Of a DNA stretch of 54,023 nt, positions 31,514 to 33,292 are shown in pieces. The DNA is from Betaproteobacteria bacterium (GTDB lineage Bacteria; Pseudomonadota; Gammaproteobacteria; Burkholderiales; SG8-41). The stretch covers positions 1-54,023 of the forward strand of contig JACQGN010000114.1 in the NCBI GenBank assembly GCA_016199545.1, written 5' to 3'. Every line of letters begins with the position of its first letter. The first letter of the stretch is position 1. A model generated the notes under the pieces. That model had not been told where the DNA came from and did not search any database. It worked only from the letters and a program-made list of their open reading frames with translations. The translations under genes were made by a program, and so were the position numbers.

Positions 31514-33292
31514 TCACTCCGTCGCGGCTGTCCAGTGCTGCAGTATGAGCTGTGCGCTGCGACTGCCGTTGAAATCGTTGACGTCGAGGCGGTAGACGGC
31601 CTCGATCCGCTGTGGCAGCCGCACGGTCGTGCCGAAAAGGATCGCGTCGAACTCGCGCCGTCCACGCGCGAGCCGCAGCTTGAGGTGGCGCTGGCCCACC
31701 ACGCGCTGGCCGAGAACCTCAAACCGGTCGAGGAACAACGGCTCCGGGAATCCCTGTCCCCATATCTGCGCTTTAAGCAGCGCTGCATTTTCGACGCTCA
31801 TGTCCCCAACCGCGAGCGAGCCGTCGGTGGTGATCTCCTCTTCGAGGTCGGCCGGCGTCAGGGCTTCACGTGCCGCCGCCTCGAAAGCATCCGCGAAGCG
31901 CCCGAAGTCCGATTCTCGCAACGTGAGTCCTGCCGCCGCCGCGTGCCCGCCAAACTTCAGGATCAGGTCAGGATGACGTTTTGCCACCCGGTCCAGGGCA
32001 TCGCGCAAATGCAGCCCGGCAATCGAGCGGCCCGATCCCCGGAGCTCGCCGTTGCCTGCACGCGCGAATGCGATCGTCGGCCGGTGATAACGGTCCTTGA
32101 TGCGCGAGGCGACGATGCCGACGACGCCCTGGTGCCAATCCGCGTCGAACAGGCTGAGGCTGAAATTGTTGCCTGGCGCGACCCGTTCGACTGCCGCGAG
32201 GGCGGCTTCCTGCATATCAGCCTCGATGTTGCGGCGCTCGCGATTGAGCCCGTCGAGTTCGGTGGCGATGGCTGTGGCCCGCTGCGGGTCGTCGGTCACG
32301 AGACACTCGATGCCGAGCGCCATGTCCGCGAGCCGGCCCGCGGCGTTGAGGCGCGGGGCCAGCGCGAAACCGAGATCGTAGGCGGACGCGCGGCGCGGGT
32401 CGCGACCGGCAACCTGAAACAGCGCTGCGACGCCGGGCTGCAGCTGGCCGCCGCGTATGCGCTGCAGCCCCTGGTTCACCAGTATGCGGTTATTGGCGTC
32501 GAGCTTCACCACGTCCGCGACCGTGCCGAGGGCCACCAGATCGAGCAGGGCGGCGAGGTTGGGCCCGCCTGTCGGGAATGATGAATGATGAATGATGAAT
32601 GATGAATTGCTTGTGCTTTCATTCCGCATTCCGCATTTCGCATTCCACATTGGTCTGAAGGCGCCTCTTTGCCGCAGTTCCGCTCGCAGCGCGAGCATGA
32701 GGTAGAACATGACGCCGACGCCCGCGAGGTTCTTGCTCGGAAACCCGCACCCGGGCTGGTTGGGATTGATGATGCAGGACGCCTGGGGCAATTCATCTCC
32801 AGGCAGGTGATGGTCGGTGATGAGTACCTTCAGCCCGAGGCGATTGGCCGCGGCAACGCCATCGACGCTGGCGATACCGTTATCGACGGTGATCAGTATG
32901 TCAGGGCGCCGCGCTGCAAAGGCGTGCTCGACGATTTCGGGCGTCAGACCGTAGCCATAGCGGAAACGATCCGGCACGAGGTAATCGACGTGCGCGCCCA
33001 ACGCACGCAGCGCCCGCAATCCCACGGCGCACCCCGTCGCGCCGTCGGTGTCGTAGTCCGCTACGATCAACAGGCGCTTCCGGTTTGCGATGGCGTCGGC
33101 CAGCAGCGCTGCCATCGCGCCCAGGTTCTGCATCCGGTGAGGCGGTTCGAGGCGCGCAAGGTCGGCGCGGGTTTCTTCCACCGAGGCGACACCCCGCGCG
33201 GCATACAGCCGCGCGAGCAGGGCGTTCTCGCCCTGTGCGATGAGGCGGGCCGTGACTTCGGCCGGTGGGTCACGCGTCGTGAAGACCGGCAT
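31514..33292 (-). CDS. recJ: Single-stranded-DNA-specific exonuclease RecJ
   Basis: DHH motifs are present (IVADYDTDGATG, ITVDNG, ITDHHLP), with the DHHA1 region and C-terminal domain. It sits upstream of prfB-lysS, as in enterobacteria. Confidence 0.92.
   Translation of the reverse strand: MPVFTTRDPPAEVTARLIAQGENALLARLYAARGVASVEETRADLARLEPPHRMQNLGAMAALLADAIANRKRLLIVADYDTDGATGCAVGLRALRALGAHVDYLVPDRFRYGYGLTPEIVEHAFAARRPDILITVDNGIASVDGVAAANRLGLKVLITDHHLPGDELPQASCIINPNQPGCGFPSKNLAGVGVMFYLMLALRAELRQRGAFRPMWNAKCGMRNESTSNSSFIIHHSSFPTGGPNLAALLDLVALGTVADVVKLDANNRILVNQGLQRIRGGQLQPGVAALFQVAGRDPRRASAYDLGFALAPRLNAAGRLADMALGIECLVTDDPQRATAIATELDGLNRERRNIEADMQEAALAAVERVAPGNNFSLSLFDADWHQGVVGIVASRIKDRYHRPTIAFARAGNGELRGSGRSIAGLHLRDALDRVAKRHPDLILKFGGHAAAAGLTLRESDFGRFADAFEAAAREALTPADLEEEITTDGSLAVGDMSVENAALLKAQIWGQGFPEPLFLDRFEVLGQRVVGQRHLKLRLARGRREFDAILFGTTVRLPQRIEAVYRLDVNDFNGSRSAQLILQHWTAATE
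32576..32651. repeat. Heptamer-array palindromic element inside the recJ ORF
   Basis: The layout is (GAATGAT)x4, GAATTGC, a 10-nt spacer, then ATTCCGC ATTCCGC ATTTCGC ATTCCAC ATT. The units are the same as in the intergenic element at 49159-49259. Confidence 0.85.

Follow-up and report, generated by a model that had tools for sequence, protein, structure and literature searches.

In many bacterial genomes that are large and GC-rich, no other long simple repeats are as over-represented as those of seven nucleotides, and in the part of an earlier survey relayed by a later paper the heptanucleotides form the most abundant class of long simple sequence repeats (SSRs), with Burkholderia among the top genomes (Mrazek 2007 via PMC4679880). 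Heptameric repeats of the unit GGGAATC in Xanthomonas and GGGGAYT in Nostoc, with a preference for four units, were described by Rehm et al. (2015; PMC4692102), and in Xanthomonas the GGGAATC repeats form 70–75 convergent pairs per genome that are mostly non-coding, lie at most 50 bp from stop codons and are mostly transcribed (PMC4692102). Direct repeats of the heptamer TAACTGA have been found in Beggiatoaceae, Cyanobacteria, and Bacteroidetes (MacGregor, 2015; PMC4679880), and MITEs (the miniature inverted-repeat type of transposable element) of bacteria are known in frame inside coding genes (reviewed in PMC10969869; a Coxiella example in PMC5896051). Here we analyze a twin array of opposed heptamers that lies in frame inside recJ on a contig of a Betaproteobacteria bacterium (Burkholderiales, SG8-41; GCA_016199545.1, contig JACQGN010000114.1); "the window" hereafter means the whole stretch of 54,023 nucleotides, and related loci are cited by their L labels. 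It is likely that the element is a passenger, that is, a copy of a heptamer twin-array repeat that is tolerated, translated and fast-evolving and that sits in a permissive, disordered RecJ loop.

The gene, its variable linker and the parts of the element are as follows.

31514..33292, minus strand: recJ coding sequence, 592 amino acids (aa), intact, with every catalytic motif present (list of open reading frames; Pfam DHH, DHHA1, and RecJ_OB).
32567..32656, minus strand: variable RecJ linker segment holding the element, residues 213–242 (ortholog alignment, empty-site allele L205, coordinate mapping).
32576-32651: heptamer twin array, plus-strand sequence GAATGATGAATGATGAATGATGAATGATGAAT TGCTTGTGCTTT CATTCCGCATTCCGCATTTCGCATTCCACATT (direct sequence reading).
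32576..32607, plus strand: arm 1, (GAATGAT)x4.6 (Tandem Repeats Finder, 100% match).
32608..32619, plus strand: spacer or loop of 12 nt separating the arms, TGCTTGTGCTTT (sequence).
32620..32651, plus strand: arm 2, (CATTCCG)x4.6, imperfect (Tandem Repeats Finder, 88% match).

A preliminary description of this DNA had noted four GAATGAT units, a spacer and four units of the ATTCCGC type, and both the sequence itself and Tandem Repeats Finder confirm that layout. On the sense strand of recJ, arm 2 reads (CGGAATG)n and gives the peptide MWNAKCGMRNE, and arm 1 reads (ATCATTC)n and gives SSFIIHHSSF. The reading frame runs uninterrupted across the element (...LRQRGAF RPMWNAKCGMRNESTSNSSFIIHHSSFPTG GPNLAALLDLVALGTVADV...), as had been claimed, and the predicted peptide is exactly the one first given. 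Of the original size estimate of 76 nt, the span of the arrays at 32576-32651 stands; the net insertion relative to the usual linker of four residues is 78 nt, not 76, or 26 codons corresponding approximately to residues 215–240 (32573-32650). The GC content of the element is 38% in a recJ gene of 66%, and the spacer TGCTTGTGCTTT is unchanged in L001 and L083. An assembly artefact was considered and rejected, as the insert is present in independent NCBI, ENA, and JGI assemblies; a chimera formed at k=141 would need flanks identical over at least 141 nt, i.e., a single population anyway.

The surrounding protein is well conserved. Residues D79, D81, D137, D160, H161, H162, D260, and G448-G449-H450 do not vary among 60 homologs, and outside the insert the ratio of nonsynonymous to synonymous divergence (dN/dS) is ~0.17; recJ is under purifying selection. 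The preliminary description held that this region is only a short linker in other RecJ proteins and proposed an ortholog alignment and a comparison with RecJ structures as checks, and both agree with it. HMMER alignments to solved RecJ structures (S. aureus 8Y30, D. radiodurans 5F54, T. thermophilus 2ZXO) fall into two blocks that skip query residues ~207–241, the gap in 5F54 being bordered by chain residues 204 and 205. Among 80 orthologs taken from contigs, with one genome per species, a four-residue linker (RGAY-xDKP-EPNL) is found in ~45, and 30 carry 10–59 extra residues at the same point. This linker is the main indel site of the ortholog alignment, with at least 5 extra residues in 30 of 81 sequences and in no more than 8 sequences at any other site. 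These alignments show that the element is a true insertion into a normally short RecJ linker. An AlphaFold2 model of the window RecJ, built from 60 homologs, has a mean predicted local distance difference test (pLDDT) score of 87.1 and a predicted template modeling (pTM) score of 0.85, and Foldseek aligns it to solved RecJ structures with template modeling (TM) scores of 0.77–0.83. Because residues 215–240 are the sole segment that falls below a pLDDT of 50, as a predicted coil between the helices 191–208 and 246–259, the insert is predicted to be a disordered surface loop of the DHH domain, ~20 residues before the invariant Asp260. This suits a tolerated loop insertion, one of the two possibilities originally offered.

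The second line of evidence comes from copies outside recJ. With a degenerate pattern of two and a half units (GAATGMKGAATGMKGAAT, at most two mismatches) 11 matches were obtained, all within 32576-32645 or 49158-49256, against 0.00 expected from 100 shuffles; the units shared with an intergenic palindrome, earlier placed at 49159-49259, are thereby located at 49159-49256. The window thus holds two same-unit copies, and a repeat scan adds two related arrays; three of the four lie in non-coding DNA. Besides the recJ element they are the following.

49159..49256, no strand assigned: second copy with AATGATG/AATGCGG arms, 3.6 + 4.6 units, and a 35-nt spacer (same-unit pattern matches, sequence).
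35683..35720, plus strand: related single array, (CGAGTGA)x5, at the lolC stop and lolD start (repeat scan).
53111..53152, plus strand: related single array, (GAGTGCA)x6, directly 3' of the relA/spoT stop, between convergent genes (repeat scan).

The copy at 49159-49256 is intercistronic in a minus-strand operon, its neighbors being identified by Pfam matches as the CP-ATP-grasp and Alpha-E genes, and a terminator scan found no intrinsic terminator at it; its arms stand 35 nt apart, those of the recJ copy 12 nt. The (CGAGTGA)x5 array starts inside the final lolC codons and stop (TAC GAG TGA) and fills the lolC-lolD junction, where more distant relatives have other units, AGAGTGA (L003) and GAGAGGC (L206). 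The GAGTGCA unit resembles the GAATGNN family with 2–3 mismatches per 19 nt. In 528 kb of related loci there are 49 arrays of period 7 with at least three copies, and every other period has at most 22.

Heptamer pairs of this kind are also found in unrelated organisms. A scan of metagenomes was made for GAATGNNx3.5, with matching contigs of 32–74% GC, and the figures that follow are among the matches listed: 22 of the 74 evaluable GAATGNN arrays have an inverted NNCATTC array 11–88 nt off, the matched arm mostly counting 4–7 units (21 in L134) and the inverted arm 2–6, and the variable dinucleotide is mostly equal in both arms of an element and different between elements. GAATGNN twin arrays are widespread in metagenomes and occur in many environmental lineages. 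Taken with the units at 49159-49256 and the low GC content, this bears out the earlier view of a repeat family, and the recJ element is a copy of that family rather than native recJ sequence. Among the full texts searched, GAATGNN-type motif strings gave three unrelated matches and no paper on bacterial repeats.

Two further observations concern the family at large. GAATGNN arrays also lie in frame within other genes, encoding a DUF1549/PSCyt2 protein, the HD domain of a CCA-adding enzyme, a class-V aminotransferase and RsmF; in these unrelated metagenome contigs (L107, L092, L151, and L154) Pfam matches are found on either side of the in-gene array, which in RsmF sits between the methyltransferase and PUA domains. 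Many GAATGNN arrays are compound, being followed by unrelated heptamers such as GGCTTAA, GACTTGC, CGCTTGT, and GCTGAAA (L084, L089, L105, L132, L141, L156).

The distribution of the insert among relatives gives its history. A full-length database search returned the 126 closest RecJ proteins (64–96% identical), and at least 70 of them carry a heptamer-type insert at the linker site; a search of a large protein database with a 185-aa query around the insert returned fragments only, at most 72% identical and mostly with short linkers. The modal linker is 34 residues long (38 alleles, with the 26-aa insert length), a second class has 40, and lengths of 27, 41, and 47 also occur, so that the classes 27/34/41 and 40/47 differ by 7 aa, or three units. 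The left half of the insert looks like a translated purine-rich array (MQNAECGMRNE, RKSKVERRKE, RMKAEGGRRKE, REKGKGEREKE) and the right half like a translated pyrimidine-rich one. The loci available as DNA share this layout, a purine-rich 7-mer in ~4 units, a spacer, and a pyrimidine-rich 7-mer in ~4 units, with the pairs AATGCGG/CATTCAT, AAGTCGA/CTTTCGC, AAGGCGA/CATCACC, AAGTGCA/CTCATCA, GAAGGCG/CCTTCAT, and AAAGGGG/CCTCATC in different genomes; in six lineages the spacer, CGAAAGGAAGACG, is conserved in part. A single arm is present in some alleles (L003, L032, L065, L045), and in L033 a second element is nested in the spacer of the heptamer element. The unit sequence is uniform within an array and differs between genomes at the orthologous site, and recJ units recur at other sites of the same genome (L032, L033, L009, and the window); this is the pattern expected from concerted evolution. 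Close relatives show a series of decay (MWNAKCGMRNE, MQSAERRMQNE, MHSEVCKTQNG, AQDTECTARNG), and in many alleles the arrays have decayed with their length retained. Alleles with and without the element, which the preliminary description had proposed to look for, are both found among relatives; they include putative precise-loss alleles inside the clade (GAFGQE, GAREE), and filled and empty sites (e.g., L205) have clean boundaries. The insert is old, and a large clade of uncultured Burkholderiales has inherited it. The first reading of the sequence overlooked this age and wide sharing, and also that the insert varies through replacement of its sequence and not through change of its length.

How fast the arrays change can be measured against the neighboring codons. 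In eight alleles that are 93–100% identical (two clusters at 90% identity) the insert is the most variable part. Across the remaining 1689 nt of recJ, L001 and L081 share 99.9% identity; in the insert they share 53%, and there L081 has a type-B sequence that is 18 nt longer and consists of (GAAGGCR)x4, a spacer of greater length and (CCTTCAT)x4. A 9.5-kb comparison of L081 with L083 shows ~39 scattered single-nucleotide polymorphisms and one 118-nt block of difference, the insert. Because the type-B insert recurs in L204, which is only 79% identical to the window, the swap is best read as a probable recombination patch between old allele types. Divergence of the insert is 0.7–3.3 times the synonymous divergence (dS) overall, being about equal to dS for the window against L001 and L083 and 3.3-fold against L082; between L001 and L083 there are three changes in the insert where 0.2 are expected. 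Insert divergence at or above dS means that the arrays turn over faster than by point mutation alone, without change in length, and indeed the window, L001, L082, and L083 all have 4+4 units despite a dS of up to 0.13.

Under the preferred passenger reading, replication slippage, template switching between the arms, or gene conversion would homogenize the arrays, homologous recombination between recJ alleles would exchange inserts, and selection would purge out-of-frame or stop-containing variants and leave the in-frame states visible. The insert peptide would then be without a specific function of its own, and the non-coding copies probably act in transcripts as stem-loops, intercistronic or 3', a role already suggested for comparable repeats. 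Several points weigh against this reading. The translation and the disorder of the insert are both predictions. The length of the insert is strikingly conserved, with 78 nt in 38 alleles, and its charged half followed by a half of Ser, His, and hydrophobic residues could reflect selection on the peptide, a pattern that also arises because purine-rich and pyrimidine-rich heptamers translate so automatically. As a hairpin the window copy is weak and does not outscore dinucleotide shuffles (z = -1.0 and -1.2), and complementarity of the arms within compared with between alleles is marginal (P = 0.036, register-free permutation test). No consistent target-site duplication was found at the boundaries of filled and empty-site alleles, and the same comparison revealed no transposase or other insertion signature, so that insertion by a mobile copy is a candidate route and local amplification may be another. 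A 7-nt direct repeat, GTTCGGC, which flanks the element in L065, was considered as a target-site duplication and set aside as not consistent across alleles.

A bolder reading, to which we give a small though not negligible weight, is that twin arrays are an active, genome-specific and self-homogenizing class that copies and overwrites by gene conversion or template switching, and that the recJ linker is a live hypervariable cassette. It is raised because inserts are exchanged between 99.9%-identical strains, units are shared within a genome and orthologous sites differ. RecJ is reportedly among the single-strand exonucleases that stabilize tandem repeats in E. coli, and if copy-and-overwrite were true, an array inside recJ might feed back on the dynamics of repeats.

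Somewhat less probable is an adaptive loop, in which the 26 residues, one half basic/acidic and the other of Ser/His/Phe character, would give the RecJ of this clade a flexible arm for partner binding or DNA contact, or a surface under diversifying selection. Of 126 homologs at least 70 retain the insert, and its modal length is exact to the residue; its faster-than-neutral turnover and its wholesale replacement in near-identical strains would fit diversifying selection, and it stands in the catalytic DHH domain a short way before Asp260. However, no conserved residue pattern is seen beyond that imposed by translated heptamers, the sequence decays progressively in close relatives and is precisely lost in the GAFGQE and GAREE alleles of the same clade, unrelated types of repeat occupy the same site elsewhere, and the segment is predicted to be fully disordered.

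An equally doubtful alternative is a cis-acting hairpin in the recJ mRNA or DNA that would regulate recJ, for example as a site for RNase, a translational pause, or a barrier to replication or transcription. The fold of the recJ copy is a ladder of 5-bp helices (GAAUG/CAUUC) with 2x2 internal loops between them. Strong hairpins are formed by the alleles of L081 (z = -4.7), L005 (-2.7 and -4.1), and L033 (-5.0), as well as by the non-coding copy at 49159-49256 (RNA fold z = -5.0 on the plus and -3.0 on the minus strand); core pairs covary between allele types (GAATG/CATTC, GAAGG/CCTTC, GAGTG/CACTC), and similar Xanthomonas repeats are mostly transcribed (PMC4692102). Against a role of the structure, significant folding is absent from the window copy and from many other copies (z from -1.2 to +3.3), one arm is lacking in the four single-arm alleles, and the complementarity test is marginal as stated. 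Rfam 15 gave no match in the window at the gathering threshold, and at a permissive threshold only chance-level matches at both copies (E of at least 0.17, at most 15 bits), the weak ones to C/D-box snoRNAs arising because the repeat holds UGAUGA strings. From the better-preserved alleles (L081, L005, L033) and the non-coding copies we conclude that each element starts out as an inverted repeat, which in recJ then decays with no sustained selection for structure there.

The preliminary description had also proposed a contingency locus, in which slippage by one or two units would reversibly frameshift recJ and yield RecJ-off subpopulations with altered recombination or repeat stability, and this we regard as very unlikely. 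Its premises are sound: the repeat lies inside the gene and its 7-nt unit is not divisible by three; arm 1 has four perfect units; in some comparisons the insert outpaces synonymous sites; and the frame arithmetic, by which three-unit changes keep the frame, holds and is matched by the 7-aa steps of linker length among homologs. Unit number also changes at the non-coding lolC/lolD array of the same genomes, where the window has 5 units, L001 and L083 have 4 and L204 has ~7; such variation means that single-unit slippage occurs in this lineage and in recJ is evidently removed by selection. The switch itself is not borne out. All of the ~200 alleles (8 close alleles, 80 genome orthologs, and 126 database homologs) are in frame at the array and none is frameshifted, with the reservation that consensus assemblies could hide rare minority variants. 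Fragments of RecJ on long contigs, considered as truncations at the array, were rejected, as they read through the linker intact. Unit number is equal in the window, L001, L082, and L083 over the divergence given above, arms have only ~4 units with arm 2 imperfect, and many arrays have decayed at unchanged length. What the frame does constrain is orientation. On the antisense strand of the element TGA occurs in each of the three frames, and the recJ frame is stop-free. Every 21 nt a heptamer array passes through all three frames, and for this reason only one orientation is viable in a gene and the peptide has a period of 7 aa.

Finally, growth of the arrays in place by slippage of the native linker, with a merely convergent likeness to the 49159 copy, would agree with the lack of a target-site duplication or mobility gene, with purely local tandem duplications in the same linker of L050 and L064 and with heptamers as a slippage-favored unit length in many bacteria (Mrazek 2007, to the extent relayed in PMC4679880), but it is highly improbable given the presence of both units, likewise laid out as a twin array, at an unrelated locus of the same genome, the 38% GC in a 66% GC gene, the clean empty and filled boundaries and the recurrence of the same architecture in unrelated organisms and genes.

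Other repeats, unrelated in type, are found in RecJ as well. In other lineages the same linker holds G/C-rich nested palindromes of up to 59 aa (L004, L006, L012, L028, L030, L055, L057), a palindrome of the type CCCCCCTTT..AAAGGGGGG (L042, L075), or, in the two cases of local duplication just mentioned, tandem copies of GAELRKxGAF. A second in-frame insertion site is found in the RecJ OB domain of other Burkholderiales, equivalent to window residues ~541–544, where a 27-nt hairpin-forming unit, CGCGAAGCAAGTCCCCTTGGGGGGCGC, encoding REASPLGGR, occurs in 1–3 tandem copies (L018, L019, L023, L027, L035, L036, L044, L049). Downstream of recJ at ~31300–31400 on the minus strand lies prfB, the gene of release factor 2, which starts in one frame and continues in another; a programmed +1 frameshift is well known for prfB and the split frames are as expected.

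An element locked in a conserved gene offers a natural experiment, in which boundaries, age, orientation constraint, and rate can be measured against the neighboring codons. It shows arrays that homogenize and are replaced faster than neutral point mutation would allow, selection that filters them to in-frame, stop-free states, and one disordered RecJ loop that takes up several unrelated kinds of repeat element, in a family that also enters other housekeeping genes. Peptides such as SSFIIHHSSF and MRNAECGMRNE are a signature of translated repeat DNA, and annotators should not assume a function for them.

Compared with described systems, the element is closest to the repeats of Rehm et al. (2015): tandem units of 7 nt, ~4 per array, in a close convergent pair with a possible stem-loop, and with the copies at 49159, 35683, and 53111 in short non-coding stretches beside stop codons or between co-directional genes. 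The four-unit preference recurs here, with 4.6 + 4.6 units in the recJ copy and mostly 4 + 4 in the recJ alleles. It differs in that GAATGAT and GAATGCG contain no tracts of three G and in that the recJ copy is intragenic and translated; as there is no GGG run, the G-quadruplex rationale is inapplicable, and the element belongs to the general heptamer-SSR kind rather than to the G-quadruplex subfamily. With the cyanobacterial short tandemly repeated repetitive (STRR) sequences and TAACTGA it shares short tandem heptamer arrays that, in the 54 kb of the window, are dispersed and in three of four cases non-coding, an occasional copy lying within an open reading frame, and with TAACTGA an orientation constrained by stop codons on one strand (the same argument is made in PMC4679880). 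Unlike the recJ element, nearly all TAACTGA repeats are direct (a single indirect repeat in 170 sets), and they are clustered just upstream of start codons, whereas the present family is defined by an inverted pair and its unit sequence is variable.

The sequence of the recJ element has neither the GTAG-type head nor the unique-sequence palindrome (imperfect, of 20–40 nt) of the RAYT-associated repetitive extragenic palindromic elements (REP/REPIN). Rickettsia palindromic elements (RPEs) are reported to be palindromic repeats that lie in frame in genes. Like RPEs and MITEs, the recJ element is an in-frame palindromic repeat in a housekeeping gene that adds a surface peptide, preserves the host protein and is present or absent among orthologs, and for this in-frame behavior they are the closest analogy. 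However, those elements are unique sequences of ~100–150 bp with defined ends and often with target-site duplications, to which the recJ element is probably unrelated in sequence, and it is built of tandem heptamers, has no consistent duplication and evolves by array homogenization. In E. coli and Salmonella, mutL has repeats of 6 bp that change in frame, a documented variation in copy number within a repair gene. The recJ array resembles such switches as a tandem repeat in a DNA-repair gene where a change of copy number could alter or abolish function, but differs in having four units per arm and no frame-changing length polymorphism in the alleles examined. The kind of repeat has thus already been described and is poorly understood; orthologous persistence with genome-specific units and whole-insert replacement, as seen for the recJ insert, were not described for the repeats of Rehm et al., and it is this replacement between strains, together with the homogenization of units within each genome, that is most worth following.

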